DNA of 62,133 nucleotides from Patescibacteria group bacterium (lineage in GTDB: Bacteria; Patescibacteriota; JABMPQ01; JAHIRA01): assembly GCA_018818205.1 (NCBI GenBank), contig JAHISJ010000029.1:1-62133 (forward strand), in the 5' to 3' direction. Position numbers and translations under genes: made by a program. The stretch's first letter is position 1. Each line of letters begins with the position of its first letter. Shown in pieces: positions 2,729 to 34,590 of this stretch. The notes below the pieces were generated by a model. The model saw only the letters and a list, made by a program, of their open reading frames with translations. It did no database searches and was not told where the DNA came from.

Positions 2729-2811
2729 TCATTTAGACGACACCTTTAGCACACTATTAAAGTAGTAAGCCGGATCCAAATAGTGGGTTCGGTTTTTTTG
2801 TATGCATGTAT

Positions 2812-2886
2812 GCAAAAAAGACCATTCTCAGGTCTTTTTCTCAGTTCAATTCCTGTATGGGTGGCGTGAGGGAGGAAATTAGAACT
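2812..2886 (+). repeat. Cassette-boundary repeat, copy C (hairpin-terminator + core)
   Basis: AAAAAAGACCATTCTCAGGTCTTTTTCTCAGTTCAATTCCTGTATGGG is nearly identical to 7243-7290. It is followed by the core GGGTGGCGTGAGGGAGGAAATTAGAACT (2859-2886). Confidence 0.85.
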
Positions 2887-2975
2887 CTAGAGTCAAAAAA
2901 GTAGATTTATTCTTTACAGTAGCAACTTAGTAAGCTACTGTTTTTGGTGTCCTTTGGTTTTTGTTTGGAGGAACA

Positions 2976-4001: not shown

Positions 4002-4671
4002 AAAGCGAGTATATGTGCAGAATGAATGTGTATTAATTCATAAAACTAACGCTCAGTGGGGCGCGCTTTCCAATATGTGTCGTGGATTCCCGATTTTACT
4101 TCCATTTAACGGTGGCAATGTAGTGCTACCCACATCTGAAGTGCTCTATCAAATGATGCGATTTCCTGAATTGATTGCGTCAGACGGATCCCACTATTTT
4201 CAAGCGCATCTTGCAAAAGAAGTGAATCCTATGAAAGCAAAAATGATCACCAAGCCTTATCGTATGCAGCACAATCGGCCTGATTGGGATTATGTACGTG
4301 TACGTATTATGCGATGGACACTTAGAATGAAATGGCTTTGCAGCTTGAGTCGTCTTGGACCGTTTCTTTTGGAGACAGGGGTTGCACCAATTGTTGAGTA
4401 CTCAAAAAGGGATGATTTCTGGGGTGCAAAGCCGATTAAAGAAAGGCCAGGACTGCTTTTGGGTTACAATGCGTTGGGTAGGTTGCTTATGGAGCTTAGG
4501 GAAGGATTGTGGCATAGAGACAACTTTCATTGGTTTTTATATGTTGAACCGCCAATTCTGCCCCACTTTACGTACGGCGAAAGACAAATTCTTCCCCTAG
4601 TGTACGAATCAGGTCTTGAGCAAGCGCTTATGGATTTTTCCTTGCAGCATTTTTGGCGGACACTAAAATGA
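3985..4671 (+). CDS. NADAR (YbiA/DUF1768) family protein
   Basis: GALSNM...LPTSEVLYQMMRF, RPDWDYVRVRIMRWTLRMKW and DDFWGAKP...GYNALGRLLMELRE align with E. coli YbiA blocks (FSNF...PTSEHYFQAQKF, NWESVKEQVMR, YWG..G.N.LG.LLMELRE). The start overlaps the upstream stop by 17 nt; the alternative start is 3958. Confidence 0.85.
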   Translation: MNGLGEKRVYVQNECVLIHKTNAQWGALSNMCRGFPILLPFNGGNVVLPTSEVLYQMMRFPELIASDGSHYFQAHLAKEVNPMKAKMITKPYRMQHNRPDWDYVRVRIMRWTLRMKWLCSLSRLGPFLLETGVAPIVEYSKRDDFWGAKPIKERPGLLLGYNALGRLLMELREGLWHRDNFHWFLYVEPPILPHFTYGERQILPLVYESGLEQALMDFSLQHFWRTLK

Positions 4672-4726
4672 AATTAAAACAAAAGCACGTGCTCTTTTTG
4701 AGTTCGTGCTCTTTTTGTTAAAAATT

Positions 4727-4754
4727 AGGTTGCGTGCGGGAAGAAATTAGAACT
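4727..4754 (+). repeat. Cassette-boundary repeat, copy D (core only, most diverged)
   Basis: AGGTTGCGTGCGGGAAGAAATTAGAACT. Confidence 0.7.
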
Positions 4755-4806
4755 GAGATGTGTAAATGTACAGCGGCAGATTTGGTTTATTGATATTTTA
4801 AAACAA

Positions 4807-4838
4807 AAAACCATCATGATGATTTACTCATGATGGTT
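4807..4838 (-). terminator. Rho-independent terminator downstream of the 4890-5285 gene
   Basis: A 12-bp stem AAACCATCATGA / TCATGATGGTTT, with a T-run on the minus strand. Confidence 0.7.
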
Positions 4839-4889
4839 TAGAACTTATTTGAATTTAGGTTAATTGGAAAGAAATAATTCAATTTAACT

Positions 4890-5285
4890 CTATGAGCAGT
4901 TTGATTGCTGTGTTAATATTTTTATTTCAAGTGCTCTTTTGTACTCCTCTTGTCGAGCAGACTCAAGAGGGGTGCCTTTTGCACGTTTCAACACTTCTTC
5001 TGCAACGTTCAGCGCAGCAACTGCTTGTTTTGGGCTAGCGCTACATTTCATTTTTTGAGCTAATTCATGAAATCTGGTCCACTCGTCATCGGTTTCCAAG
5101 TTTTCTTTGTTGGCATGGATGAGCATAATAGCCCACGAAAAGTAGTTTTCGTTTTTTCGCTCAAGACAAAGTTCTGCGAAGAGAAAAGCTTCTTCAAGTT
5201 TCTTTACTTCTTGAGCGAGTTGTTTTAAGAGGTCACGAATTTTCCCATTTTTTCCTTTAGCTTGTTTATAGAGTTTTTGAAACAT
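4890..5285 (-). CDS. Small helical hypothetical protein
   Basis: AAGGAGG lies 8 nt before the ATG at 5285 (MFQKLYKQAK...). The protein is charged and helix-prone. I recognise no motif. Confidence 0.5.
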   Translation of the reverse strand: MFQKLYKQAKGKNGKIRDLLKQLAQEVKKLEEAFLFAELCLERKNENYFSWAIMLIHANKENLETDDEWTRFHELAQKMKCSASPKQAVAALNVAEEVLKRAKGTPLESARQEEYKRALEIKILTQQSNCS

Positions 5286-5433
5286 TTCAGTCGCCTCCTT
5301 GTTTTTTGATATTAGAGAACACATGCAGAATGAATGCACCTCAGTGCATAAATGCTACGTCATTATACAATAAAAAGGGCTGGAAGTCAACCCCTTCTAG
5401 AAAAATTTAAGATAAGGTAAATTTGATTGTCTT

Positions 5434-5462
5434 AAGGTGGCTTGAGGGAGGATATTAGAACT
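5434..5462 (+). repeat. Cassette-boundary repeat, copy E (core plus a 3' extension shared with copy A)
   Basis: AAGGTGGCTTGAGGGAGGATATTAGAACT. The following GTGTTTG...AGGAGTA.GTATT resembles the sequence after copy A. Confidence 0.8.
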
Positions 5463-5612
5463 GTGTTTGCTAGTTTTACTCATCTTAAGTAGGAGTATGT
5501 ATTTTATTCGGGCGTGCAATAATTGCTTATAATGTTAGTGCTCTTTTCTAGCTTTCAGAATTCCCTTATTTCAGCCTAAAGAGTGGCTTTCTTATATTTG
5601 CTTATAATAAAT

Positions 5613-7038
5613 CTAAAAGGATGTATTATAATAAGTATTTTTAGATTGTCCCCTTTGGCTAATCAGCCCTAGTTGGCGCATTTGTTTTAAATCATGATTT
5701 AAGGTTATTCTTGGGGTTTGAGGTAATAGGTTTTCACATTCTTTTGCTTTGACAGTTTTGTTTTCAACCAAGTGTTCCCATATTTTAACTTGTCTTTCAT
5801 TTAACTTACTTAATTTTTGTCCCATTAAAATAACCTTGAAGCTATTTGATGTGTTTTTGAAAATTGGTAAAAGTAAGTTCCATTTCTGCATTTCATTAAA
5901 AACAATATCTATCCCTCTTCCATATTCTTCCAAGTAATCAAGCTCTTTCAAGCGAGCTGCTATAGTTTCATTTCTACTTACCTGGGCATCTTTAATATTT
6001 TCTATGGTGACGCCAGGTGGCAAGCAGCCAGGGTTAAACACTTCTATCCTGTCTTCAAAAATGTTTACCTGCGTGTATGTTTCAGTGGAGTTATAATCTC
6101 TATGTATAACTGCGTTGGCCACTATTTCTCTGATGGCTTTTTCAGGATACTCGTATTTTTCGATTCTTCTTGTACCAACTATTTCTGCACTTTTTCTTAT
6201 GTTTCTTAGAACAAATTTTTGCATATCGTCGATTTGATTATCCAATGTACCATCGATATCTAGGCTATCAATTATGTCAGTTGCTACATTTGACCCTTGA
6301 TACTTTACACATCTAATAACATATCTGCTAAACTGTTGTTTACGCTGTGGTTTGTCTTTGGCGAAGATTAAAAAACCCGCGAGAGTAAGTTTTTCTTTTC
6401 CTCTAAAAATATCGGCTATGCCTAAATTCTTTAATAATTCAAAATCAATTTCTTTTATAGAGCTTCTTCTCTGGGTTCTTTCACCACTTTTAATTAAAAG
6501 TTCTAGAATTTTCTCTTTTGATAAATCATCAAGCGAAGTTCCTTCTGCTGCAATAATATCGTACTTAAATTTTTTTGAATTATCTATTAAGCTTCTCATC
6601 TCGTTGTCAGTCATTTTTCTGTCAGTGTTGCCATCTCGTATATAAGCACCATGTGGTAAGCCAACTGGCTTGTAATAACAGGGCTTAAATTGATTGGGGC
6701 ATTCCGGTATAAATGGCTAAGATTGCTTTTCCTTTCATTTCTAGAATGTGGTACTCGGGCCGAAGGGTGAAGCTCATTTCATTATTCGCTAGGTCTCCAA
6801 TTTTTTCTTGTAAATTGTCAATCACATCAGTCCCTACAATCGTTAATTTATGTTTGTTCTTGTCTTCATCAATGCCAAATACAATAATTCCACCACCAGG
6901 CCGATGTGAAAAAGAAGATACCGATTTCCATATGCTTTTTGGCAAGTCATTACGAGCAGTTTTGAATTCAATACTGCTTGTTTCAGTTTTATTTTTAATT
7001 GATTCTTCAATTAGTTTTATTGTCTCTTCTTTGTCCAT
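5613..7038 (-). pseudogene. Frameshifted AlbA_2 (Schlafen-type) + HATPase_c_4 'divergent AAA / RecG-like' regulator gene
   Basis: ORF 6685-7038 encodes the AlbA_2 N-terminus (SSIEFKTARNDLPKSIWKSVSSFSHRPGGGIIVFGIDED). ORF 5613-6614 encodes the HATPase_c_4 part (REIVANAVIHRDY...SRNETIAARLKEL..EYGRGI). Shifting frame by one base near 6705-6712 restores ...AILAIYIPECPNQFKPCYYKPVGLPHGAYIRDGNTDRKMTDNE. Confidence 0.75.
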
Positions 7039-7196
7039 ATTTTACTTAGATTATTTCTTTGAAATTATTCTTTGTGCATAGTATTCAAATTTGCATATGT
7101 ATCGAGTATATCATTTTTGCTTCTGAATGAATATCTACATAATGCTTTATCACTAGACCTTCATAATTATGCTAATCTTGGGGTAATTTGACATAT

Positions 7197-7290
7197 CTGA
7201 GATATTTATTGAACTGCACGGTTGGTGGGGTTTTTGTTTACAAAAAAAGACCATTCTCAGGCCTTTTTTCAGTTCAATTCCCGTATGGGG
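7197..7290 (+). repeat. Cassette-boundary repeat, copy F (long form, abutting the 3' end of tRNA-His)
   Basis: It aligns with copy A over about 95 nt and with copy C over about 50 nt. GTTCAATTCCCGT (7272-7284) is an inverted copy of the tRNA-His T-arm (7297-7309). Confidence 0.85.
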
Positions 7291-7360
7291 TGACCAACGG
7301 GAATTGAACCCGTAATAGGAGTACCACAAACTCCTGTGTTACCATTACACTATGGTCACC
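7286..7360 (-). tRNA. tRNA-His (GTG)
   Basis: The cloverleaf was folded by hand: G-1 plus acceptor GTGACCA/TGGTCAC, D stem GTGT/ACAC, anticodon stem GGAGT/ACTCC with loop TTGTGGT, and T arm ACGGG-TTCAATT-CCCGT. CCA is encoded. Confidence 0.9.
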
Positions 7361-7425
7361 ATCATATTTACGTAGTAAATTATAGCGGTTTTTCTAAAAT
7401 AAGGAAGGGAAAATCTAAAAAACTT

Positions 7426-7698
7426 TTATGCGGAAAATCCTTCTAAATCCCCGCTTTCCTCAATTTTCTTGTCTTCATACGGCCCTGCTTTTCTGCGGTA
7501 AAATTCAAGTTTAGCAGCCTCTAAGGCACCAATGAGCTCATTTAAATCCTTGTATCTGCCCTCTCCGGTCATAGCAAGCAATAATCTATTGATGGTATAG
7601 TTTAGTTCGCCTGCTCTACCCTCTTGTGTCATCGCGCTTGCTAAGGGGTCAATGAATTGATCTAAACGTTCTCTGTCTTTTTTGGGTAGATAGGGCAT
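7426..7698 (-). CDS. Small conserved hypothetical protein (90 aa)
   Basis: Clean ORF encoding MPYLPKKDRERLD...LNYTINRLL...LEAAKLEFYRRKAGPYEDKK. It looks like a conserved family, but I cannot name it. Confidence 0.55.
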   Translation of the reverse strand: MPYLPKKDRERLDQFIDPLASAMTQEGRAGELNYTINRLLLAMTGEGRYKDLNELIGALEAAKLEFYRRKAGPYEDKKIEESGDLEGFSA

Positions 7699-7734
7699 AT
7701 TTTTTGTTTAATTGAATACCAAAATACAAGTTAA

Positions 7735-7777
7735 GGGGTCCCCGAATAATTCCTATTATTTGGAGAGAAGGAGGAAC
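7735..7777 (+). repeat. Hairpin + purine-run repeat, unit 1
   Basis: GGGGTCCCCGAATAATTCCTATTATTTGGAGAGAAGGAGGAAC. The stem is CCGAATAAT/ATTATTTGG with loop TCCT, followed by AAGGAGG and the ATG at 7781. Confidence 0.75.
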
Positions 7778-7855
7778 ATCATGGAAGCTGGAGCGAGCTC
7801 CGTAGCGAAACATGAGTACTTAGCTTAGACAGGAAAAAGGAGAAAAGTAAAAATT

Positions 7856-7898
7856 GGGGTCCCCATAAAATTCCTATTTTATGGGGAAAAGGAAGAAG
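7856..7898 (+). repeat. Hairpin + purine-run repeat, unit 2
   Basis: GGGGTCCCCATAAAATTCCTATTTTATGGGGAAAAGGAAGAAG. It matches unit 1 at 33/43 positions, and the stem differences are compensatory (CCCATAAAAT/ATTTTATGGG, loop TCCT). Confidence 0.75.
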
Positions 7899-7920
7899 TG
7901 TCTTTAGGCTGGAGGTCAGT

Positions 7921-7940
7921 ATCAAAATTCTTATTTTGGT
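7921..7940 (+). repeat. Third, shorter hairpin of the same style
   Basis: ATCAAAAT-TCTT-ATTTTGGT, immediately 3' of tRNA-Leu (minus strand). Confidence 0.5.
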
Positions 7941-7970
7941 GCTGGCGTAAGCCTGTAGGCACTTTTGACG

Positions 7971-8053
7971 TGCCGCTGGTCGGAGTCGAACCGACATGAC
8001 CATAGGCCACACGATTTTGAGTCGTGCGCGTCTACCAGTTCCGCCACAGCGGC
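7971..8053 (-). tRNA. tRNA-Leu (CAA), type II
   Basis: Acceptor GCCGCTG/CAGCGGC, anticodon stem CACGA/TCGTG with loop CTCAAAA, a long variable arm, and T arm GTCGG-TTCGACT-CCGAC. No CCA is encoded. Confidence 0.9.
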
Positions 8054-8122
8054 AGCAAATTATTATAGTTACCATGAACCGACCGAAGGTCTGGTTCATG
8101 GGGATTGTAGCATGAGAAATTT

Positions 8123-9259
8123 CTAATTACAATCTTCACTAAGGAAGTCTATGAAGTTTTTAGAATTGATTAGTTTTAAACTACTACCTGGATATGTTTC
8201 AAGGAAAGATCGTACTGAACGTGCTTTATTGCCTCTCCATTTAAATTCATATCCATGTAGAGTTGCGTTTATATCCTCTAGGTAGTCAATTTCTTGCTGC
8301 TGATATGTTCTCCAAAAGTAAGGATTACTATCGTATCCGTTATTGTGACAATTCTTTATTCGTTCACTTATCATAAAGTTTTCAAAAAGTGCACCAGTGT
8401 CTTGTCTAAGATCTAGCGGGTTTAAATTATTTATTAGAGCATTTCTGATTCCTGTATCAACAAAATAAACTTTTCTCAGTTTCGTTAATTCTTTGCGCAA
8501 ATTTTTACTGTAGGGCTTGAGTCTAAAAATAACAAATGCCTTTTCTAAGATTTGTAAGTAGTGAGTGACTGTTTTTTTGTTAATCCCAACAAGGCTGGCA
8601 AGTTCATTGTAGGATACCTCGTTTCCTACTTGAAGTGCTAATGCTTGAAGAAGCTTTTCAAGCATATCCGGATTTTTGATTTGTTGAAATTGAAGTACAT
8701 CTTTGAAGAGGTAGCTTTTTACAATGTTTTTTAGAAGCTCCTCAGATTCAGCACTTTTCTCAACAATTTCTGGATACATGCCATAGAGCATTCTCCTTTC
8801 TAGCAGTCGCTTTACTTCCTGTCGTGAATATCTCTGCATGAGTTCTTCTACAGAGAAAGGGTACAGAGTAAAAAAATAGGCTCTGCCCGTAAGCGGTTCC
8901 TCAATATCATTTGATAGCTCAAAAGAAGAAGATCCTGTAGCTACAATTTGAATCTTTGGGAATGTGTCTACAATAAGTTTCAATGTCAAACCAATATTTT
9001 TGACTCTCTGAGCTTCATCAATAAATACGATTTTACTATCTCCAATAAATGACTGAATCTCCGTAGAGGTAGCATCAGTGAATGATTTTCGTATATCTGG
9101 CTCATCGCAGTTTAGGTATGTTGAAGATGGATACTTTTTTTGAATTGTCTGAATAAGAGTAGTTTTCCCTACTTGTCTCGCACCATAAATTACTATCACT
9201 TTTCCCTTAAAGAACGAATCTTCTACTTTGCGTTGAATTGTTCTTGTTACAGTATCCAT
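8123..9259 (-). CDS. AAA+ ATPase with a DUF4143-type C-terminal domain
   Basis: Walker A is GARQVGKTTL and Walker B is IVFIDEAQ. The C-terminal YFWRTYQQQEIDYLE block is typical of the AAA_14 + DUF4143 architecture. No SD; the context is AT-rich. Confidence 0.8.
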   Translation of the reverse strand: MDTVTRTIQRKVEDSFFKGKVIVIYGARQVGKTTLIQTIQKKYPSSTYLNCDEPDIRKSFTDATSTEIQSFIGDSKIVFIDEAQRVKNIGLTLKLIVDTFPKIQIVATGSSSFELSNDIEEPLTGRAYFFTLYPFSVEELMQRYSRQEVKRLLERRMLYGMYPEIVEKSAESEELLKNIVKSYLFKDVLQFQQIKNPDMLEKLLQALALQVGNEVSYNELASLVGINKKTVTHYLQILEKAFVIFRLKPYSKNLRKELTKLRKVYFVDTGIRNALINNLNPLDLRQDTGALFENFMISERIKNCHNNGYDSNPYFWRTYQQQEIDYLEDINATLHGYEFKWRGNKARSVRSFLETYPGSSLKLINSKNFIDFLSEDCN

Positions 9260-11975: not shown

Positions 11976-12024
11976 ACGATAGATCTATATTATTTGTGGA
12001 TAGTTGTGGATAAGCTGTGGGAAG
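11976..12024. promoter_or_regulatory. AT-rich GATC 20-mer followed by three tandem DnaA-box-like 9-mers
   Basis: ACGATAGATCTATATTATTT, then TGTGGATAG (11995-12003), TGTGGATAA (12005-12013, a perfect match to the TTATCCACA consensus) and TGTGGGAAG (12016-12024). It lies in the divergent EAL/HD intergenic region. Confidence 0.6.
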
Positions 12025-20101: not shown

Positions 20102-20110
20102 TTATCCACA
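20102..20110 (+). promoter_or_regulatory. Perfect DnaA-box 9-mer (TTATCCACA)
   Basis: Exact consensus, intergenic, 3 nt after the stop of the 19788-20099 gene. Confidence 0.55.
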
Positions 20111-20113
20111 ACA

Positions 20114-20140
20114 AAATACCCTTATTCTAGGGTATTTTTT
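20114..20140 (+). terminator. Rho-independent terminator
   Basis: AAATACCC / GGGTATTT stem followed by a T-run. Confidence 0.7.
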
Positions 20141-20156
20141 AGTACATTCGGTAGAT

Positions 20157-20177
20157 ACGATCGATCTATATTATTTT
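20157..20177. repeat. AT-rich GATC 20-mer, copy 2
   Basis: ACGATCGATCTATATTATTTT. It lies between convergent genes. Confidence 0.7.
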
Positions 20178-20180
20178 GAA

Positions 20181-20447
20181 CTAGGCATCCTTCCAATTCC
20201 ACCATTTGAGTTTTTCCGGATCCGGATTTTTAGTGCGTGCAAAGTATACGGCAGTTTTGCATACATACAGTAAGCAGCGATCAATGTGGCTCCCTTGATA
20301 TGCACAGATATCATCGTACAATTTTTGGGGTTGAACGGAACGTAAGTCACTGACTTTCCTAATACCAACATTCCAAAAATCATGTGCAATACTTTCACCA
20401 ACTCCTGGGATTGTTTTTAGCTCAGTTATTGACTCTTTCTTGCTCAT
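20181..20447 (-). CDS. Helix-hairpin-helix domain protein (Cdd1/TfoX-C-like)
   Basis: LKTIPGVGESIAHDFWNVGIRKVSDL is an HhH motif. The protein is 88 aa. Confidence 0.6.
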   Translation of the reverse strand: MSKKESITELKTIPGVGESIAHDFWNVGIRKVSDLRSVQPQKLYDDICAYQGSHIDRCLLYVCKTAVYFARTKNPDPEKLKWWNWKDA

Positions 20448-20508
20448 TTAGCATGTTTTAGATTGTCTCTGTCTAGTGTAGCATAGAAGCACGTCGGTTT
20501 TCCACTGC

Positions 20509-20551
20509 TTATCCACAGAATTATGGCAAATATGATAGATCTATATTATTT
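20509..20551 (+). promoter_or_regulatory. DnaA box + GATC 20-mer composite unit
   Basis: TTATCCACAGAATTATGGCAAATATGATAGATCTATATTATTT. It is nearly identical to 21422-21464. Confidence 0.65.
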
Positions 20552-20662
20552 CTTTCTATCGTTTTAGCATATTGAGCGTCCCTTTTTGGAAAGCAGATTG
20601 GGATTCAAGATAATGTAGAAAAAGAGATTCATGTTGCGCATTTCTGAGTTACCTTTTTGGTG

Positions 20663-20684
20663 CATTGTTCCACGTGGAACAATG
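20663..20684. promoter_or_regulatory. parS-type palindrome 1
   Basis: CATTGTTCCACGTGGAACAATG is a perfect 22-bp dyad. The core TGTTCCACGTGGAACA differs by one base from the consensus parS TGTTNCACGTGAAACA. Confidence 0.8.
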
Positions 20685-20838
20685 CCTCTGGTTTTTTGGT
20701 TATTGCATATGCATACTACATAGCTGTCTCTATATGTAAAAAATCTTACACTGTATCATTATTAATGTACCTGTTAGTGAGGTATGCTTTGTCCCTGCAC
20801 GATATTTTCAAAATTTTGAGCGTAGAGATACTTTGTTG

Positions 20839-20858
20839 ATTGTTCCACGTGGAACAAT
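20839..20858. promoter_or_regulatory. parS-type palindrome 2
   Basis: ATTGTTCCACGTGGAACAAT, a perfect 20-bp dyad. Confidence 0.8.
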
Positions 20859-20937
20859 GTTATTCAATGCAGAAAGAATACATACCGCTTGTTTGCAAAG
20901 TAGTATTGATCAAAGATGTGATTTGCTTGACTGGTGC

Positions 20938-20965
20938 ATAGAATGTTCCACGTGGAACATTCTAT
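20938..20965. promoter_or_regulatory. parS-type palindrome 3
   Basis: ATAGAATGTTCCACGTGGAACATTCTAT, a perfect 28-bp dyad. Confidence 0.8.
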
Positions 20966-21112
20966 TGATGTGCAATGGTTGTGAACGTAACATATAATAA
21001 TTTGTGTCGCGATTTTCAGATCACATAGTAGCACTTCTTCATATTGAATGTAAAAGTTCTGCTTGTTGGAAAATTTCTGTCAGATGCTCGGAATATTTGT
21101 ATTGTCTGCATA

Positions 21113-21136
21113 TATATGTTCCACGTGGAACATATA
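21113..21136. promoter_or_regulatory. parS-type palindrome 4
   Basis: TATATGTTCCACGTGGAACATATA, a perfect 24-bp dyad. Confidence 0.8.
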
Positions 21137-21238
21137 CATGTCATGCTACCTGTTTACTGAACGTACATCCTCCTGGCAATAATTTTAGTGTCTATTCCAT
21201 TGTAGCGTTCGACTATTTACTGATGTCAAACGGAGCTA

Positions 21239-21264
21239 CTCATTGTTCCACGTGGAACAATGAG
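21239..21264. promoter_or_regulatory. parS-type palindrome 5
   Basis: CTCATTGTTCCACGTGGAACAATGAG, a perfect 26-bp dyad. Confidence 0.8.
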
Positions 21265-21421
21265 GATGCTCAAAAGGGTGAGAGCACTCATCAGGCACTT
21301 GCCATTCAGGAAATTGTATTTGGCACAAAGCTTGGGGAGCAAACGTATGCTTGCGGATAGTGACAGGTAAAAGAGACTATTTTGCACAGAAAAGATACTT
21401 CCTGGCACTGTTATACACTAC

Positions 21422-21464
21422 TTATCCACAGAATAGTGGCAAAAACGATCGATCTATATTATTT
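21422..21464 (+). promoter_or_regulatory. DnaA box + GATC 20-mer composite unit
   Basis: TTATCCACAGAATAGTGGCAAAAACGATCGATCTATATTATTT. Confidence 0.65.
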
Positions 21465-21599
21465 CCGTTTCATGGTGTATCTGCTTGTTGTTCGCATATA
21501 CTACAAATCGTGTATATATCCGAAATACAAAAAGCCTTTATTCAAGGCTTTTTATGTATACATGTTCGGATACTCTGCAAAACGCGCGTATATCCGAAC

Positions 21600-23069
21600 T
21601 TATCTACGGGGTTGCTTCTTAATATATGGGAGTACAAAAACAATACCAAGTGTTAGCCAAAACAGCATGATCCCCTGTCTAATCGACCAAAAGTAATGGT
21701 CAAAGAATCCTGCAAAAATAAGTATGCTGCCAAGTATTATAGAAAAGAGCATAGGAAGGGTTATTTTCCCTTTTTTTTGTATGGCAATGTAGAGTCTTTT
21801 TACCACTCTCAGGAGGATAATAAGGAGTATTCCGAGTCCCATGAGTCCAATTTCAGCGGTAATAAGGAGATAGAGGTTGTGTACCGGTTGATATACCCAG
21901 TCCTCGAGTCCAAAGTAGTAGATTGACATGGTGTAGATAAAGTTTCCCATACCAATGCCTACAAAAGGTGAATAAGTAATGAAGTCGTAGGAGACGTCGG
22001 TTAAAAATTGTCTTTGAGAAAGGGCCATATCTCCGTTTGAGTCACCGAGTGTCATTCTGTTTGTGAAAAAAGGAAGAAAAATCATACCAAGAATTACTGT
22101 CGCGAGTAGCAGTGTTCCAATTGGATAGAGTATCTGTTTAGATTTTATTTTCCCCTTAAGTGTTTTTGCCAGTCCGAAGAGTAAAAGAAGGGCCCAAGCG
22201 ATAATTAATGAGGCGAGTGCGGTTCGTGAAAAAGAGAGAAACACCCCAACAGTACTCAGTAATGTGCAAAAAAGTGTACCAAAATAGGCAACAGAAAGCA
22301 CTCCTGACGTAAGCGGGAGAGTTAGTGCTGTTTTTTTTGTTCCAAAAAGCGTTAGTGTAGTCGATTTTTGAGAATTTTTTCGTTTTTTGTAGAGTAATAT
22401 AGTGAGAAGCATTCCTGCAACTGTTGCAATCACCAGGAACATACCGAGCAGGTTAGCATGCGGAAATGTACCGACACTGCGGATTATTCGGGTATTATCA
22501 ATAACGATTTTAGGGACATTAAAGATAAAAGGCGATGTGTCGATTTCACCCAGTATTTTGAGACCAAGCGAACGTTGAAGCGTGAACTGAAACAATGCGA
22601 GTATGGCCTGGAATGCTCCTGATATGAGTAATACACCGAGTGTAGCCGCTATTTTGTATGTAGAGCGAATGGCCGTTGTATAAAAGAAAAGGAATAGTGC
22701 GCCGGTAAGCACCGCTACGCGATACCATGCAATGGTTTTAATATATACCTCAGGAAGAAATACGGTAGCAATAGAGAGCCCAATGAGTGCAATTGCCGCA
22801 AATAAGAGGACTTTGTCTAGTTTAGCTGGTCTAGGTGTCTTTGTGATGATTCGGATAGTGAATTGTACGAGGACTAGAGCTATGAGAGCAAGGAGAACAA
22901 TATCTGAAGCGTAGAGTGACACTGTAAGCCATTCGTTAAAGCCTGAAATAAGCCGTACCATGCCAAATTCAAAGAAATGCCTTTTTTCAAAAGGAAGAAT
23001 AATGACGTAGAGAAGAAAAAGAGCAAATGAAAGTCTTGAGAGATAATATAGAATGGTCGTTTTTGGCAT
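21600..23069 (-). CDS. O-antigen ligase / polymerase-like (Wzy_C) polytopic membrane protein
   Basis: There are roughly ten or more hydrophobic helices. FSRTALASLII and HNLYLLITAEIGLMGL are blocks typical of Wzy_C. I chose the start at 23069 (MPKTTILYY); the longer ORF to 23189 runs through repeats. Confidence 0.72.
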   Translation of the reverse strand: MPKTTILYYLSRLSFALFLLYVIILPFEKRHFFEFGMVRLISGFNEWLTVSLYASDIVLLALIALVLVQFTIRIITKTPRPAKLDKVLLFAAIALIGLSIATVFLPEVYIKTIAWYRVAVLTGALFLFFYTTAIRSTYKIAATLGVLLISGAFQAILALFQFTLQRSLGLKILGEIDTSPFIFNVPKIVIDNTRIIRSVGTFPHANLLGMFLVIATVAGMLLTILLYKKRKNSQKSTTLTLFGTKKTALTLPLTSGVLSVAYFGTLFCTLLSTVGVFLSFSRTALASLIIAWALLLLFGLAKTLKGKIKSKQILYPIGTLLLATVILGMIFLPFFTNRMTLGDSNGDMALSQRQFLTDVSYDFITYSPFVGIGMGNFIYTMSIYYFGLEDWVYQPVHNLYLLITAEIGLMGLGILLIILLRVVKRLYIAIQKKGKITLPMLFSIILGSILIFAGFFDHYFWSIRQGIMLFWLTLGIVFVLPYIKKQPRR

Positions 23070-23074
23070 AAATC

Positions 23075-23083
23075 TGTGGATAA
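23075..23083 (-). promoter_or_regulatory. Perfect DnaA-box 9-mer (TGTGGATAA on the plus strand)
   Basis: Exact consensus, 6 nt upstream of the proposed start of the ligase-like gene. Confidence 0.5.
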
Positions 23084-23106
23084 GTTGTTTATAGATTGGA
23101 ATGAAT

Positions 23107-23116
23107 GGGGGGGGGG
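23107..23116. repeat. Homopolymeric G10 (C10 on the coding strand of the ligase-like gene)
   Basis: GGGGGGGGGG lies 38-47 nt upstream of the 23069 start. It is the only G/C run of this length that I saw in the window. Confidence 0.9.
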
Positions 23117-23118
23117 CG

Positions 23119-23267
23119 TTTTGAGAGAGGGTGGGGATGAACCCCACCCGTACGGACATTGAATTTGTAGGGATGGGGTTCATCCCCACCCGCGCGTTAG
23201 GAACAGAATTTCACTTTAGTATAGCATAGATGGTGCCTTTTGAGAGAGGGTGGGATTCATCCCCACG
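23119..23267. repeat. Cluster of three GGGTGGGG..CCCCACCC hairpin repeats
   Basis: TTTTGAGAGAGGGTGGGGATGAACCCCACCCGTACGG (23119-23155), GGGATGGGGTTCATCCCCACCC (23170-23191) and TTTTGAGAGAGGGTGGGATTCATCCCCACGC (23238-23267). The loop orientation differs between units 1 and 3 although their left flanks are the same. Confidence 0.8.
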
Positions 23268-23328: not shown

Positions 23329-24153
23329 ATGAAAAAGTTTGTTATTGGATTTTTTATTGTCGTAGGACTTATCTTTATAATTGGTGCAATTATTCTTGGT
23401 GTTTTGTATGTGGCGGCCCCTGATCGCTATAACGTACTTATTATTGGTACTGACCAGCGTGGTGATGAGCGGTCGCGTAGTGATGTATTGATGGTTTTTT
23501 CTATTCCCAAGAATCCAAAGGAGCAGACGACGCTGCTTACGATTCCTCGGGACAGTAAGGTTGAGATTCCTGGAGAAGGGGAAGATAAGATTACCCATGC
23601 CTATGTGTATGGGAAGAAAAAGGACCCTGACAGCTCCCTTGGCAATGTTGATTTAACACAAAGCACTGTGGAGAATCTTTTAGGCATTAAAATGGACGCA
23701 ACACTTGAGTATAATTTTGATAGTTTCTCAGAGATTGTTGACTTGATTGGTGGAGTAAACGTAGATGGCACACAAATGGATAGCGATGACGCGCTCCTTG
23801 CAGCGCGGAATCGCTATAGAGCAGGTGGTGACTTTGCTCGTACAGAAGATCAACGGCAGATATTTCAAAGTATTTTAGCTCAGGCAAAGAATAAAGATGT
23901 TGCTACGGCGCTTTACCATTACATGACTACTTCAAAAAACGCTCGGTTGCAGTTTTCACGGATGAGTGCAGGGCATTTTGGATTGGGGTTTTATATGAGA
24001 AGGCTTGGTAGGATTTCTATTGGTGACATTACGGAAGAAGTGGTGCCAGGGAAGGGCGGTACGCAGTATTCGGCGAAGTTTGGGCAGAATTTGTATTTTT
24101 GGGGTGTGGATGAAGAGGGGTTAGAAGAGATTGTGGAAGAGGGGTTTAGGTAG
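23329..24153 (+). CDS. LytR-CpsA-Psr (LCP) family protein
   Basis: N-terminal TM helix, then VLIIGTDQRGDERSRSDVLMVFSIP...LLTIPRDSKVEIPG, which is the canonical LCP core. Confidence 0.85.
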   Translation: MKKFVIGFFIVVGLIFIIGAIILGVLYVAAPDRYNVLIIGTDQRGDERSRSDVLMVFSIPKNPKEQTTLLTIPRDSKVEIPGEGEDKITHAYVYGKKKDPDSSLGNVDLTQSTVENLLGIKMDATLEYNFDSFSEIVDLIGGVNVDGTQMDSDDALLAARNRYRAGGDFARTEDQRQIFQSILAQAKNKDVATALYHYMTTSKNARLQFSRMSAGHFGLGFYMRRLGRISIGDITEEVVPGKGGTQYSAKFGQNLYFWGVDEEGLEEIVEEGFR

Positions 24154-24237
24154 ATTAGGGTGGGGACAAAGCTTAGACAGATTAGGGTGGGGACAAGCCC
24201 CACCCGTACGCAGTAGGGGTGCCCCTTGTGGGTACCC
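24152..24237 (+). repeat. Tandem AGATTAGGGTGGGGACAA(A)GC x2, GGGTGGGG hairpin and a REP (GTAGGGGTGCCCCTTGTGGGTACCC)
   Basis: Direct tandem copies are at 24152-24173 and 24178-24198. The hairpin is at 24185-24205 and the REP at 24213-24237, upstream of the RAYT gene. Confidence 0.8.
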
Positions 24238-24246
24238 GATGGGAAT

Positions 24247-24280
24247 AAAAGCGGAGAAAATTTATTTTTATCCGCTTTTT
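24247..24280 (+). terminator. Rho-independent terminator (after the LCP gene)
   Basis: AAAAGCGGA / TCCGCTTTT stem plus a T-run, ending right at the RAYT start codon. Confidence 0.65.
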
Positions 24281-24859
24281 ATGTATAGAAGAAAAAATTC
24301 GTTGAGGCTGAAGAGATGGGATTATTCAAATAATGGGTGGTACTTTGTGACGATATTTGTGCAAAATGGTGTATTAATGTTTGGTGAAGTTGTAAGAGGG
24401 GTAATGGAATCAAATGAGTCCGGAAAATTGGTTTATCAAGCATGGAAAGAGTTGCCGAAAAGTTACCCCACAATAGCAATTGATGAGTTTGTAATTATGC
24501 CAAATCATATGCACGGCATAATAATTAATAAAAACCCCGTAGGGGAGCCCCTTGTGGGCACCCAACCCCGAAGCACCCAATCCCGAAGCACCCAATCCCG
24601 AAGCACCCAATTCATGGGCATCACCAAATCCCATAATCATTATAGTAATGTGAGCAATATCATTGGCGCATATAAATCAATCACAACGAATGGCTATATA
24701 CGTAATGTAAAACAGAATAATTGGAAACCATTCCAAAAAAGAATTTGGCAACGTTCCTTCCACGACCACATTATCCAAGACGAACCTGATTTACATCGGA
24801 TTCGTACCTATATTCAGAATAATCCTCAAAATTGGGAATGTGGTTGTGATGATCAATAA
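24281..24859 (+). CDS. REP-associated tyrosine transposase (RAYT, IS200/IS605 Y1 HUH family)
   Basis: YFVTIFVQN, the HUH motif MPNHMHGII, and C-terminal IWQRSFHDHIIQDE..L.RIRTYIQNNP. I chose the start at 24281; the longer ORF from 24131 reads through repeats. Confidence 0.85.
   Translation: MYRRKNSLRLKRWDYSNNGWYFVTIFVQNGVLMFGEVVRGVMESNESGKLVYQAWKELPKSYPTIAIDEFVIMPNHMHGIIINKNPVGEPLVGTQPRSTQSRSTQSRSTQFMGITKSHNHYSNVSNIIGAYKSITTNGYIRNVKQNNWKPFQKRIWQRSFHDHIIQDEPDLHRIRTYIQNNPQNWECGCDDQ
24537..24563 (+). repeat. REP copy inside the RAYT coding sequence
   Basis: CCGTAGGGGAGCCCCTTGTGGGCACCC encodes PVGEPLVGT in frame. Confidence 0.8.
24567..24611 (+). repeat. 3 x 15-bp perfect tandem repeat inside the RAYT CDS
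   Basis: CCCGAAGCACCCAAT repeated three times, in frame (RSTQS x3). Confidence 0.9.
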
Positions 24860-24930: not shown

Positions 24931-25017
24931 TGGTGGGCGAGAGAGGACTCGAACCTCCACGGCATATAATGCCACTAGCTCCTAAGGCTAGCGTGTCTAC
25001 CATTTCACCACTCGCCC
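24931..25017 (-). tRNA. tRNA-Leu (TAG), type II
   Basis: Acceptor GGGCGAG/CTCGCCC, anticodon stem CTAGC/GCTAG with loop CTTAGGA, a long variable arm, and T arm GGAGG-TTCGAGT-CCTCT. CCA is encoded. Confidence 0.9.
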
Positions 25018-31090: not shown

Positions 31091-31951
31091 TTATTTTTGT
31101 TTGCAAATCCCATCTGCTGCGCCACCTAAAATTTCATCGTATAATGAAACATTTTCCTGCTTTTCACATGTAAGTGGAGATACACAGCCGTGATTTGAAA
31201 TAGTCTCGCTGGCGCTTATTGAAGAGGTACTGCATTTGTCATTCTCTTTAAGTAGACAATATTTTATAGGAGAATTTGGCGGCTGGAGACAGCGAGTATT
31301 TGGGTGACAGGTTTTACCTTCTACAAGGAAGGTACGTTTATACCGTTCGCACTGTTCAGAAGTCATGTCTTTACACTCTCCTCCACAGAGAGCATAGAGG
31401 GGTAATACGGCCTTCTGTTCTCCCGGTTGTTTCTGAGCATTTTCAGGCGTGTTTCCAGAACCTGATGATGGAAGAGTGCCACTGCCAGTATTCCCTGATT
31501 GGCTTGATTGATTTGCGTTTTGGGTGGGGCTTGAAGGGTCATTTTGCGTAGCAGCATTGGGGGTAAATACAGGCGTTTCTGTTGGGTCACTAAAGAGTGC
31601 ACCGGTTACATAACTTGCAATGAGAAATGCGGCAACGACAATAACCATACCAATAACGCCATATGTGATAATCTTTTTTCCAAGCTCTATGCGCTCTTGA
31701 CTGCCTGCTGACGTTGCATACGTTACTCCGCCATAAACCATAACGGCAAGAAGCACTACGGCAAGGGCCGCAAGTACCCATCTGATGATATTTCCAACAA
31801 AGACATCTGCTTTCTGGTTTGTAAGTCCCAGGTTAGTTACGTTTTTTAATCCAAAATCAGTAACGGCATGAGTCGCGGACGGAGCAAAAATAAGAACAAC
31901 AAGTGCTATAAGTAACAAACTGGTGCATAAAAATGTAACAACGGGCTTCAT
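31091..31951 (-). CDS. T4SS-pilin family protein with a C-terminal low-complexity + Cys-rich extension
   Basis: The pilin block is VYGGVTYATSAGSQERIELGKKIITYGVIGMVIVVAAF. A P/S/Q/N-rich linker and a Cys-containing tail follow. I chose the start at 31951. Confidence 0.7.
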   Translation of the reverse strand: MKPVVTFLCTSLLLIALVVLIFAPSATHAVTDFGLKNVTNLGLTNQKADVFVGNIIRWVLAALAVVLLAVMVYGGVTYATSAGSQERIELGKKIITYGVIGMVIVVAAFLIASYVTGALFSDPTETPVFTPNAATQNDPSSPTQNANQSSQSGNTGSGTLPSSGSGNTPENAQKQPGEQKAVLPLYALCGGECKDMTSEQCERYKRTFLVEGKTCHPNTRCLQPPNSPIKYCLLKENDKCSTSSISASETISNHGCVSPLTCEKQENVSLYDEILGGAADGICKQK

Positions 31952-31961
31952 CGTCAAAAAA

Positions 31962-32324
31962 TTATTTGGTAAGTGAACCGATAACAAATTCAGCAATGAT
32001 GCGCGCTGCCGCGACAACTGCAATACCTATGATAGCGTATGTGATGGTTTTCTTTGCGGAACCAACTCTCTCCTCGCTTCCCGCCGAGGTGAGATACAAT
32101 GTACCACCATACACCAGCATGGCGATTAATATTACGGCAAGGACCCCCGTTACTGCATTGATAATCTTAGTTACATACTCTGTAGGACTTGCTTTTGGAA
32201 GATCAGTCTTTGCTAGGAATCCTAAGCCAAAGTCTCCCGCCGCAGCTGCAGTCTCAGAAAAAACAAACAGGCCTATGCAGGCAAGAAGAACTACACTAAA
32301 AATCACAATACTCTTTTTGCTCAT
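31962..32324 (-). CDS. T4SS-pilin family protein, minimal form
   Basis: VYGGTLYLTSAGSEERVGSAKKTITYAIIGIAVVAAA. I chose the start at 32324 (MSKKSIVIF). Confidence 0.72.
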   Translation of the reverse strand: MSKKSIVIFSVVLLACIGLFVFSETAAAAGDFGLGFLAKTDLPKASPTEYVTKIINAVTGVLAVILIAMLVYGGTLYLTSAGSEERVGSAKKTITYAIIGIAVVAAARIIAEFVIGSLTK

Positions 32325-32380
32325 ACGTGTGTTTACTAGTGGGTGAAAATCACCCAAGTTTATAGGTAAGAAACAAACTA

Positions 32381-33037
32381 TTAACCAGCACCAAGCGCAC
32401 CCATAACAAACTTTATTATAGTATATGCACCAAGAGAAATAACAAGACCAATGATGCCGGCGGTAAGAGCGGATTTCCCTTTCTTTGCATTTTCTTCACT
32501 ACCACCAGACGTTGCGTACAGGAGTCCTCCATAAATAAATACCGCAGCGGCAACTACTGCAACAAAGCCTAAAATATAGTTGATAATCTTTACGATTAGA
32601 TCACCGATATTGGTAACACCAAGGGGGTTATCAAGAGTTACAGATGTTGTTTTTGTACCACCGGTGGTGGCTCCTGGTGTGGCAGCAGCATTGGTATTAC
32701 TTGATGCGGGTGTAGATGCACATGTGCCGTTTACACACTTGATGGTACCGCCGCATTCAGCATCTTTTGTACACGCTTTTTGTCCAGTTGCTGCTGGAGC
32801 AGTGGTACATACATCATTTACACAGGTTTCTCCAGTTTGACATTCATGATCTATTTGGCAAATTCCTCCACTGGGACCACAAGCTCCCTTTGTTCCACCA
32901 CTTGGTATGGTACACGATTGACCCCGAGAACATGCAGAGCTATCCGTGCATTCAACTGCATACGTTGTTGATGACACAAACAACAGACCACCTAAAAGGA
33001 AGGCAACGACTATGAATAACTTTATTACATTGTTCAT
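32381..33037 (-). CDS. T4SS-pilin family protein with an N-terminal Cys-rich repeat domain
   Basis: Signal peptide and three C-x3-[DS]-x-C-x2-G-x2-C-type modules precede IYGGLLYATSGGSEENAKKGKSALTAGIIGLVISLGAY. Confidence 0.72.
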   Translation of the reverse strand: MNNVIKLFIVVAFLLGGLLFVSSTTYAVECTDSSACSRGQSCTIPSGGTKGACGPSGGICQIDHECQTGETCVNDVCTTAPAATGQKACTKDAECGGTIKCVNGTCASTPASSNTNAAATPGATTGGTKTTSVTLDNPLGVTNIGDLIVKIINYILGFVAVVAAAVFIYGGLLYATSGGSEENAKKGKSALTAGIIGLVISLGAYTIIKFVMGALGAG

Positions 33038-33075
33038 TGAAAAAATATGTTATTTTATTTACCTAGCTTTTTATC

Positions 33076-34590
33076 TCAAACGCCCTTCCACTTCCACGCG
33101 TCTGTTGGGCAGGTGAAACTTGGCTTATACCACGAACCAGCTTGCTTTGCGCCAACCGCACTCATGACACTATTGATGATAAGCCAACCTGACATCATGA
33201 TGACCATGCCAATAATTGCGGCGCCAAGGGCTTTTTTTGCTTTGCCTTTTCTTTCTTCATTGCCACCTGAGGTCATGTACATTAAACCACTGATGACAAT
33301 CATGAGGCCACCAATGGGTGCTAAAAACATTGTAGCATACCGTGCAAAGTTTGTTACTACGTTCATTATATCACAGATTGTGCATGCACCGCAGTTTAAA
33401 CACTCATTTGACATACCTTCTGTAAAACGGCCGCGAGAGCCGGGGTCAGCTTTGCATTGCGCGGATATGTCGAGTGATGTTACCCCAAGTTGCGTGGGTG
33501 CCTGGGTTACCGGATTTGATGGGTTTGCACATTGCTTTGCTGTTGTTTTGCATGCGTAAACCTGCTTTCCGTCCTGTGTTTTTGTTTCCAGCTCTTCACC
33601 AGCTCCACATTTTGAGGTGGATGTTTTTTCTTTAAATGAAACGTTACCAGCTGTGACAAAGGCTGCGTTGTATGTTTGTTGACACTTTTGGCCTGTTGAG
33701 CATTGACTATCACTTGCGCAGCTATGACCAAGGTTCAATTTTGCCATACAATATGTTGTACCGGTTTCCATGTTAGGATTAGAACCTGAATCTTTACCCG
33801 CTTGGGCATCGCTATTTGTAGCAGCTCTGCAGGAAAGTCCATCTTTACACTGACTGGTTGATGAACACTCTTTGTAAACAGTTGACCCTTTATCTAAGGA
33901 TTGGCATGAGCACGTATCGCTTCCAGGACCACATCCTTCTGATGTTTTTTTGCTATTTAAGCACTTAAGTCCGTAGTTACAATCAGAATCACGTCTGCAC
34001 GCAGTTGCCGTTGTTACGTACTTTTTGTTTACGCAGTATCCATGAGATTTATCAGCGCGTACAATACATGATTCACCATCTGAACATTCTGCATCATCAT
34101 CAGCAAATTGAGGATTACACTTTGTGTCAGTAGATTTAATGCACTTGCTATACGGGTCTTTGCCAAGACATTTCTCGTCGGATTTGCAGTCACTTGATGT
34201 TGTGCATTTCTTTTCGTTTCCATTTGCCAACGATGTTTGCCCGTCCTGACATTTTTTATCTTTGCATACGAGTGGTGCTTGACAGTCGTTATCAAAGGAA
34301 CATAAGTCACCTTGGCTCTTATCTCCTCTACATTGATTGTACACACAATTACCCGTCCTGCATTCAATATCTTTCAAACAAGCTCCCCCTTTTGTTTTCA
34401 CACAATGCTTCTTATTGTCCGATGACCCTTCAACCTTCTCACAAATATACCCACTACCACAGTCAGCTGAAGCATTACATACTTCTCCAGGGTCATTGAC
34501 GGCAAAAGCATAAGTAGTTACGCCGAAAATAGTGACAATCAAAAAACATAAACAATGAAAGATAGTTACTATCGGGTATGCTCTTTTCAT
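33076..34590 (-). CDS. T4SS-pilin family protein with a ~380-aa N-terminal Cys-rich repeat domain
   Basis: Signal peptide, then repeated modules such as CNASADCGSGYIC, CLKDIECRTGNC, CSFDNDCQAPLVC, CRRDSDCNYGLKC and CASDSQCSTGQKC. The C-terminus is LMYMTSGGNEERKGKAKKALGAAIIGMVIMMSGW. Confidence 0.72.
   Translation of the reverse strand: MKRAYPIVTIFHCLCFLIVTIFGVTTYAFAVNDPGEVCNASADCGSGYICEKVEGSSDNKKHCVKTKGGACLKDIECRTGNCVYNQCRGDKSQGDLCSFDNDCQAPLVCKDKKCQDGQTSLANGNEKKCTTSSDCKSDEKCLGKDPYSKCIKSTDTKCNPQFADDDAECSDGESCIVRADKSHGYCVNKKYVTTATACRRDSDCNYGLKCLNSKKTSEGCGPGSDTCSCQSLDKGSTVYKECSSTSQCKDGLSCRAATNSDAQAGKDSGSNPNMETGTTYCMAKLNLGHSCASDSQCSTGQKCQQTYNAAFVTAGNVSFKEKTSTSKCGAGEELETKTQDGKQVYACKTTAKQCANPSNPVTQAPTQLGVTSLDISAQCKADPGSRGRFTEGMSNECLNCGACTICDIMNVVTNFARYATMFLAPIGGLMIVISGLMYMTSGGNEERKGKAKKALGAAIIGMVIMMSGWLIINSVMSAVGAKQAGSWYKPSFTCPTDAWKWKGV

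Follow-up and report, generated by a model that had tools for sequence, protein, structure and literature searches.

Several sites for proteins of the ParB family are packed into a short non-coding stretch in the type Ia centromeres of plasmids and phages, such as F (sopC), P1 (parS) and RK2 (KorB operators), each with its own unrelated site sequence, often in regular tandem units, and with its own adjoining parAB or sopAB operon. In Myxococcus xanthus, Corynebacterium glutamicum and Streptomyces coelicolor, the sites of the chromosomal parS cluster are spread through tens of kb or more, and genes lie between them. The closest described sites are those of Pseudomonas: the 16-bp sequence TGTTCCACGTGGAACA corresponds to parS2 and parS3 of Pseudomonas aeruginosa, where it has been termed a perfect palindrome (PMC4368675, Table 1), and it is also given as the parS of Pseudomonas putida, with a near-identical site given for Myxococcus (PMC7022226, Table 1). 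Here we report that a contig of 62,133 bp, analysed at its full length (hereafter the window, the coordinates of which are used throughout), carries five copies of this same 16-mer in a gene-free kilobase next to a gene for a Wzy_C-like membrane protein. The identity and clustering of the sites, their non-coding and chromosomal context and their conserved linkage to one gene family are described below, and lead us to consider the array, with a probability of about 0.78, as the chromosomal centromere (parS cluster) of an uncultured Patescibacteria-like bacterium.

A pattern search of the whole window identified five exact TGTTCCACGTGGAACA cores (starts 20666, 20841, 20944, 21117 and 21244; Table 1) and no further site of this kind, even when two mismatches were allowed. 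Dinucleotide-preserving shuffles give an expectation of 0.02 such sites, and none of 100 shuffles reached five. All five 16-bp palindromes match the consensus TGTTNCACGTGNAACA. A first-pass annotation of this DNA had described five perfect dyads of 20-28 bp, and the maximal palindromes indeed measure 24, 20, 28, 24 and 26 bp; four of the starts that it gave are exact (20839, 20938, 21113 and 21239), and the first palindrome begins at 20662 rather than at 20663. The array extends over 603 bp (20662-21264) inside a gene-free stretch of 1.15 kb. Its centre-to-centre spacings of 175, 103, 173 and 127 bp, or about one site per 120-150 bp, came out the same on recomputation, and the repeat analysis of the region, in which the spacers shared no repeats besides the sites themselves, agrees with the earlier description of the intervening sequences as unrelated. 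The core had also been described as differing by one base from the conserved parS. This understates the match, since the 16-mer is itself a documented natural parS and, going by its sequence, not a new variant. By the same comparison, the five palindromes qualify as bona fide ParB recognition sites.

The concern, raised in the same annotation, that the palindrome might be a generic repeat finds no support in the 62 kb. There is no copy beyond the array, and the half-sites GTTCCAC/GTGGAAC occur three times outside it, compared with about 7-8 expected by our estimate, and are thus not enriched; the palindrome is not a generic repeat. At all five sites perfect palindromy reaches 2-6 bp past the core on each side, with extra arms that vary from site to site (GCAT, AT, ATAGAA, TATA and CTCAT) and form no longer shared consensus. 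An extension of at least 4 bp was found at four of the five sites in the window, compared with 21% of 433 symmetric sites in array loci of other genomes (L020-L139) and 7% in a flank-swap control. Symmetry without common flank sequence fits a birth of the sites through fold-back copying of a half-site, and equally fits selection for symmetry itself.

These long palindromes also bear on the idea that the sites are operators of another dimeric regulator, which would read CACGTG-centred dyads and control the neighbouring Cdd1-like and/or Wzy_C-like genes. ParB-independent regulators that bind palindromes are common, the array lies upstream of the minus-strand Cdd1-like gene, with parS 1 at 215 bp from its start, and the perfect palindrome of each site exceeds the 16-bp ParB core. 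However, the arms beyond this core differ among the sites, whereas 16 of 16 positions equal a validated parS in all five copies, and related loci carry only two known natural parS variants, with T/A or C/G at positions 5 and 12. In addition, a set of five operators that covers 600 bp and reaches as far as 800 bp from the sole downstream start codon would make an odd layout, and a role as operators appears to us very improbable.

Loading of ParB at a centromere is the best reading of the array because the palindromes are canonical chromosomal-type parS; the centromere interpretation of the first-pass annotation stands to this extent, and the plasmid-like character that it ascribed to the array does not, as discussed below. 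ParB dimers of the chromosomal type, encoded elsewhere in the genome, would recognise each 16-bp palindrome, close as clamps dependent on cytidine triphosphate (CTP) and slide outward onto the flanking DNA, where the clamps would build one partition complex that marks the locus for segregation via ParA and/or the loading of SMC. With five strong sites in 600 bp of untranscribed DNA, the local loading rate would be high, and a putative terminator on the Wzy side, together with the absence of genes, would keep RNA polymerase out and reduce transcription collisions. ParB binding, clamp loading and a segregation role at the array are what we infer from the established biology of ParABS.

Like the window, P. 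aeruginosa and P. putida have several clustered chromosomal sites, including the same 16-bp TGTTCCACGTGGAACA, some of which are intergenic (PMC4368675; PMC7022226). In P. aeruginosa, however, the four oriC-proximal sites lie separately around oriC and two of them are imperfect palindromes, whereas the window has five perfect ones in 600 bp of dedicated non-coding DNA; moreover, Pseudomonas differs in that its cognate ParB and the proximity of its sites to the origin are known. The clusters of M. xanthus (22 sites), C. glutamicum and S. coelicolor resemble the window in having many near-identical parS in one chromosomal region, thought to come together in a single ParB complex or a few of them (PMC7022226, Table 1 and section 5; PMC3899335), but the window differs from them in its density of one site per about 120-150 bp and in the absence of genes between the sites.

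Compact arrays were also searched for in other genomes. With each species represented by one genome, a scan for pairs of parS at a distance of 150-180 nt listed at least 120 loci, which belong to Planctomycetota, Bacillota, Bacteroidota, Proteobacteria, Acidobacteriota, Spirochaetota and Patescibacteria. Among the 120 loci listed, thirty have at least five exact parS sites within 1 kb, and twenty reach five sites in a stretch of no more than 620 bp, equalling or exceeding the tightness of the array in the window (603 bp). In about half of the 30 dense arrays no site lies in any open reading frame (ORF) of at least 120 aa. Dense parS arrays, gene-free ones included, are a recurrent chromosomal feature, and the compactness of the array in the window is not exceptional. 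The first-pass annotation had assumed that parS sites on chromosomes are usually dispersed; across uncultured diversity this premise, which had made the array look plasmid-like, does not hold. Of the 120 loci listed, taken over all phyla, 48 have a Spo0J-like parB within the same stretch of at most 8 kb, which ties such arrays to ParABS in general.

Among the listed loci, a metagenome-assembled genome (MAG) of Moranbacteria (L087) has ten parS in a gene-free 1.2 kb (1004-2195) directly upstream of dnaA (2484-3857), a closed Paceibacterota chromosome (L060) has seven in 370 bp, a closed chromosome labelled 'uncultured Bacilli' (L136) has nine, and a Parcubacteria MAG (L061) has three parS interleaved with three exact DnaA boxes at 4473-4916. 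The arrays of uncultured genomes, such as L087, L060 and L136, share with the window the same two parS variants, a density of at least five sites per kb and a location outside ORFs in about half of the cases; they differ from it in their neighbouring genes and in the parB near 48 of the 120 listed, whereas the window has none. No publication describing compact parS arrays of uncultured genomes was found in the literature searched.

Besides the array, the contig carries polA, uvrB, ruvA, truB, rpsD, holA, a bacterial pgi (PGI) and four tRNAs. The window is therefore chromosomal, and the array is located on the main chromosome. This setting does not agree with the earlier impression of a plasmid centromere, and neither does the remaining evidence. 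The ten genes flanking the array gave no PHROG match and no Pfam family of the rep, par, relaxase or integrase type, Pfam and PHROG families indicative of a parA-parB or sopAB operon or of replicon or mobility genes were absent within about 20 kb on each side, and blastn of the array region against 72,556 plasmids and 50,697 phages returned no similarity. Compared with the F, P1 and RK2 centromeres, the window has no adjacent par operon, carries a chromosomal-type site on a housekeeping chromosome and has irregular, unrelated spacers instead of the regular tandem units with conserved spacers of the plasmid type.

A related explanation is that the array serves a plasmid or mobile element, integrated or mis-assembled, as its centromere, or is a parS decoy that exploits the ParB of the host. 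Its compact non-coding layout with multiple sites, a Y1_Tnp-like gene (24131-24859) and a tRNA-Leu (24931-25017) at 3 kb, and the occurrence of chromosomal-type parS pairs on at least 120 'viral' contigs of IMG/VR, mostly with two sites and no ParB, are in line with this idea. They are opposed by the housekeeping genes on both sides of the array, by the lack of plasmid or phage records matching the region and of replication, partition or mobility families in the ten flanking genes, and by a GC content of 0.373 for the array region, which is unremarkable compared with 0.407 for the window. In addition, the position of the array by a Wzy_C-like gene recurs in distant genomes, which argues for an old chromosomal locus, and the Y1_Tnp-like gene is itself syntenic with a Wzy homologue in L006 (38% identity). 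We regard a plasmid or mobile-element origin as extremely improbable.

The Y1_Tnp (IS200-like) protein is encoded near the Wzy_C-like gene both in the window and in a Saccharibacteria MAG (L006, 1852-2454), and this neighbourhood is, judging from the protein comparison, local synteny that has survived large divergence. A relation of the palindromes to repetitive extragenic palindromic (REP) elements and their associated tyrosine transposases (RAYT), which the nearby Y1_Tnp-like gene brings to mind, was ruled out, as the palindrome is an exact parS present in only five copies, all in one place. Each of the IMG/VR contigs (L238-L357) has two chromosomal-type parS 150-180 nt apart. Many of them are about 15 kb long and come from one dataset (3300045988), and among these at least 120 contigs a Spo0J-like ParB was found in none and a Soj-like ParA in two; they could represent elements borrowing the ParB of their host, or misclassified host DNA.

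Concerning the organism, a T4SS_pilin (VirB2-like) domain was identified in three adjacent minus-strand genes (31091-34590), about 10 kb from the array, and arrays of VirB2-like pilin genes have been reported as characteristic of Patescibacteria (bioRxiv 10.1101/2025.01.22.634366). The window also contains a FemAB gene, and the relatives of its Wzy_C-like gene in a protein search come mostly from Patescibacteria-labelled MAGs. From the pilin array, the FemAB gene and the Wzy_C-like relatives we infer an organism that is Patescibacteria-like, that is, of the type of the candidate phyla radiation (CPR). UvrB is uninformative for placement, its best matches being 61-63% identical and spread over Dehalococcoidia, Saccharibacteria and Gracilibacteria, and weak synteny (QueH, FemAB, RuvA and UvrB near a Wzy homologue) was found only with an unclassified MAG (L001). 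A Bacteroidota origin, suggested by two large adjacent ORFs, was ruled out: according to Pfam these encode LTD/PKD repeats and not SusC/SusD, and the remaining window looks CPR-like. An extension beyond either contig end was sought in other assemblies and none was found.

The parS cluster is limited to one dedicated non-coding kilobase. Between the Cdd1-like and the Wzy_C-like gene the public gene calls, made on two independent assemblies of the locus, include no gene, and per-codon coding scores of the ORFs in this gap range from -0.30 to 0.01, compared with 0.14-0.34 for 29 real genes of the window. All reading frames of 20448-21599 are closed, and the longest gap ORF (118 aa) has no Pfam match, which bears out the earlier statement that no credible ORF surrounds the array.

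Two independent search routes connect parS clusters with the neighbouring Wzy_C-like gene. A search with the protein returned 17 loci at about 30% identity, five of which (L004, L006, L010, L015 and L017) have 1-6 exact canonical parS (TGTTTCACGTGAAACA) in the 3' half of the homologous gene or shortly beyond its end. L237 represents a sixth case, with three parS inside the Wzy homologue and one downstream, and the homologue contexts in L234-L236 have a single one-mismatch parS each. By the DNA route, the scan for parS pairs, five of the ten CPR-labelled loci (L031, L050, L063, L095 and L128) overlap a Wzy homologue. Taken together, parS clusters lie in or beside Wzy_C-like homologues in at least 11 other, mostly Patescibacteria-labelled genomes, so that the cluster is conserved at the corresponding locus in relatives (11 loci). 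In a genome of about 1 Mb, the probability that a parS cluster falls by chance no further than 2 kb from a given gene is by our estimate well under 1%, and therefore the linkage is real.

In several relatives the sites lie inside intact Wzy_C-like ORFs (ten sites in L031, six in L050, five in L095; Table 1), where the embedded parS encode CSTWN, V[PS]R[GE]T or FHV[EK] according to the frame. One embedded parS is found at the same codon and alignment positions (R..Y.NVSR[G/E]T...P.G.G.G.F) in five lineages, and at this position the Wzy_C-like protein of the window reads DVSYDF, with no site. L031, L050, L063 and L095 carry the same C/G variant as the window. This variant, TGTTCCACGTGGAACA, is stop-free in all three frames and the canonical T/A variant has a TGA in one; in the gene-embedded arrays, sites of the T/A type are confined to two frames, avoiding the TGA frame, and those of the C/G type occur in all three. 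The array in the window is best seen as a local form of a lineage-typical centromere locus, with all sites just downstream of the gene.

The gene-embedded arrays also raise the possibility that the gene-free kilobase is decayed coding sequence laden with parS, for instance a duplicated 3' part of the Wzy_C-like gene, which concerns the origin of the array and is compatible with a centromere function. Besides the sites inside Wzy ORFs in L031, L050 and L095, the second Wzy_C fragment ORF downstream in L015, with more sites, points in this direction, as does the fact that the C/G variant is the only parS variant stop-free in all three frames. However, blastx of 20448-21599 against ten Wzy homologues returned only short parS-core peptides and no extended similarity, and the closed frames and non-coding codon scores described above speak against it as well, leaving an origin by gene decay unlikely. 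The linkage could also have a functional side, the Patescibacteria centromere being a compact parS array that is functionally, and not only historically, tied to the Wzy_C-like gene. The centromere could be anchored to the envelope as the gene product is inserted into the membrane during its translation, the envelope-glycan gene could be placed under ParB control, or segregation and initiation control could be joined in one compact unit suiting very small genomes. We consider such a functional tie a speculative and rather unlikely extension of the centromere reading.

Table 1. Coordinates of the parS array, the elements around it and the parS-bearing genes of other genomes. Positions refer to the window unless preceded by a locus name.
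Feature	Position	Strand	Description
parS 1	20662-20685	no strand	24-bp perfect palindrome GCATTGTTCCACGTGGAACAATGC; core 20666-20681
parS 2	20839-20858	no strand	20-bp perfect palindrome ATTGTTCCACGTGGAACAAT; core 20841-20856
parS 3	20938-20965	no strand	28-bp perfect palindrome ATAGAATGTTCCACGTGGAACATTCTAT; core 20944-20959
parS 4	21113-21136	no strand	24-bp perfect palindrome TATATGTTCCACGTGGAACATATA; core 21117-21132
parS 5	21239-21264	no strand	26-bp perfect palindrome CTCATTGTTCCACGTGGAACAATGAG; core 21244-21259
Left 56-nt bracket repeat	20497-20552	+	exact DnaA box TTATCCACA at 20509-20517; AT-rich GATC motif TGATAGATCTATATTATTT at 20533-20551; about 50 nt upstream of the opposite-strand Cdd1-like start
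Right 56-nt bracket repeat	21410-21465	+	86% identical to the left repeat; exact DnaA box at 21422-21430; motif CGATCGATCTATATTATTT at 21446-21464
Third, looser module copy	20102-20176	+	exact DnaA box at 20102-20110; motif CGATCGATCTATATTATTT at 20158-20176; just past the 3' end of the Cdd1-like gene
Fourth module copy	11977-12022	reversed	three DnaA-box-like sequences in 30 bp (exact, one mismatch, two mismatches); divergent promoter region between EAL and HD genes
Cdd1-family helix-hairpin-helix protein gene	20181-20447	-	88 aa; Pfam; start codon 215 bp from parS 1
Wzy_C-like (O-antigen-ligase-like) polytopic membrane-protein gene	21600-23189	-	Pfam; 3' end towards the array
Hairpin	21529-21553	no strand	AAAAAGCCTT-TATTC-AAGGCTTTTT; downstream of the Wzy_C-like gene, between gene and array
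36-nt direct repeat	21489-21524 and 21563-21598		copies 78% identical; brackets the hairpin
parS-bearing Wzy_C-like ORFs	L031:6840-8000; L050:6675-8000; L095:645-2186; L004:6298-7803; L237:3049-4479		3-10 exact parS sites each

Between the array and the Wzy_C-like gene, the hairpin bracketed by a direct repeat (Table 1) looks like a bidirectional intrinsic terminator by its sequence and would protect the array from read-through from the Wzy side. Rfam gave no match in the array region at the gathering threshold and a single weak terminator-like match at an E-value of 1 or less. In a promoter and terminator scan of the same region nothing exceeded the shuffles, except for parS 1 followed by a T-run.

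A 56-nt repeat is present on either side of the array, each copy with an exact DnaA box and, 15 nt after the box, the sequence GAT[A/C]GATCTATATTATTT; a third and a fourth copy of this module are also present in the window (Table 1). The AT-rich motif of the module resembles GATCTATTTATTT, the 13-mer of the Escherichia coli oriC. Exact TTATCCACA boxes number five in the window, compared with 0.61 expected, and none of 100 shuffles reached five. Three of them lie near the array within 1.33 kb, each with an AT-rich GATC motif, which is a low density for an origin. In Bacillus subtilis, oriC-proximal DnaA-box clusters, which lie outside oriC in the neighbourhood of parS and show an interplay with Spo0J, are assigned roles in regulation and in the control of initiation (PMC3245932). 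The boxes of the window are likewise near parS, but they occur singly, each as part of a repeated module placed directly at the borders of the array. By their sequence, the bracket repeats suggest a coupling to DnaA, whether as a cluster with a regulatory or titrating role or as elements that set a boundary; more speculatively, DnaA bound to them could limit the sliding of ParB or couple segregation with the control of initiation.

The DnaA-box modules and the parS array might together form a replication origin or a DnaA-control unit, a reading that overlaps with that of a centromere. Apart from the excess of exact boxes, three plus-strand boxes (20102, 20509 and 21422), each paired with the motif GATCGATCTATATTATTT, flank the array. 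Similar associations exist elsewhere, as the ten-site array of L087 lies directly upstream of dnaA and three parS alternate with three exact boxes in L061, and T4SS/pilin genes have been reported near dnaA in many CPR genomes, the pilin array of the window being 10 kb away. However, no dnaA or dnaN was found in the 62 kb by Pfam, three exact boxes in 1.3 kb are few, and the fourth module copy, situated in an ordinary divergent promoter region (11977-12022), fits a regulatory DnaA motif better. The first-pass annotation had proposed to place the locus relative to the minimum of the cumulative GC skew; within the window there is no such minimum and the curve rises monotonically. After strand separation, the skew of plus-strand genes is 0.144 to the left of the array and 0.185 to its right, and that of minus-strand genes -0.047 and 0.016, respectively; the plus-strand skew keeps its sign across the array, and no switch of polarity is seen at the locus. 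The bracket repeats do not make the locus an origin, and it is not a skew-defined origin; we consider the origin reading improbable.

Some observations weigh against the array being a chromosomal centromere. Chromosomal parS are usually close to the origin, and the plus-strand skew is positive on both sides of this array, with no skew minimum in the window. As the first-pass annotation had stated, parA and parB are absent from the window, according to Pfam searches of all ORFs of 150 aa or more and to tblastn with Spo0J and Soj, and with no ParB, ParA or SMC gene within these 62 kb the cognate ParB is assumed. The fetched sequence of the CPR-labelled array loci contains no parB except in L010. 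This locus, by contrast, provides the nearest evidence in favour of a cognate ParB: at about 7 kb from its Wzy-embedded parS it has a canonical parA-parB pair, which encodes a ParB of 290 aa, 42% identical to Spo0J, with a GARRLEA arginine patch; a search with this ParB returned 12 loci, none of them in array-bearing assemblies. In the literature searched, no paper was found on ParABS, parS or ParB in Patescibacteria, CPR or Saccharibacteria, nor any study of how Patescibacteria segregate their chromosomes. Finally, the other assemblies of the locus are 99.9-100% identical to it, the closest Wzy homologue after them does not exceed 34% identity, and the databases have no intermediate relative.

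Two further features of the window lie apart from the array. One of the three T4SS_pilin genes also has a Dickkopf-like cysteine-rich region, and beside tRNA-His and tRNA-Leu there is a run of genes resembling a defence or conflict island (2961-9259), which comprises PRTase-CE, NADAR, a pair of Schlafen AlbA_2 and HATPase_c_4 genes and an AAA_14/DUF4143 ATPase.

The sequence of the site was already known and its compact arrangement is shared by many genomes; most noteworthy are the conserved pairing of parS clusters with Wzy_C-like genes in Patescibacteria and the DnaA-box brackets. For the window, the chromosomal centromere reading provides a confident annotation of the array as the likely ParB loading site of the chromosome, and not as a plasmid relic. 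More generally, dense and often gene-free parS arrays are frequent in uncultured bacteria, and in Patescibacteria-labelled genomes they recurrently track one membrane-protein gene. Such arrays offer a landmark by which the segregation locus is easily found in metagenome-assembled genomes, as well as a concrete set of sites for in vitro tests of the ParB proteins of candidate phyla.

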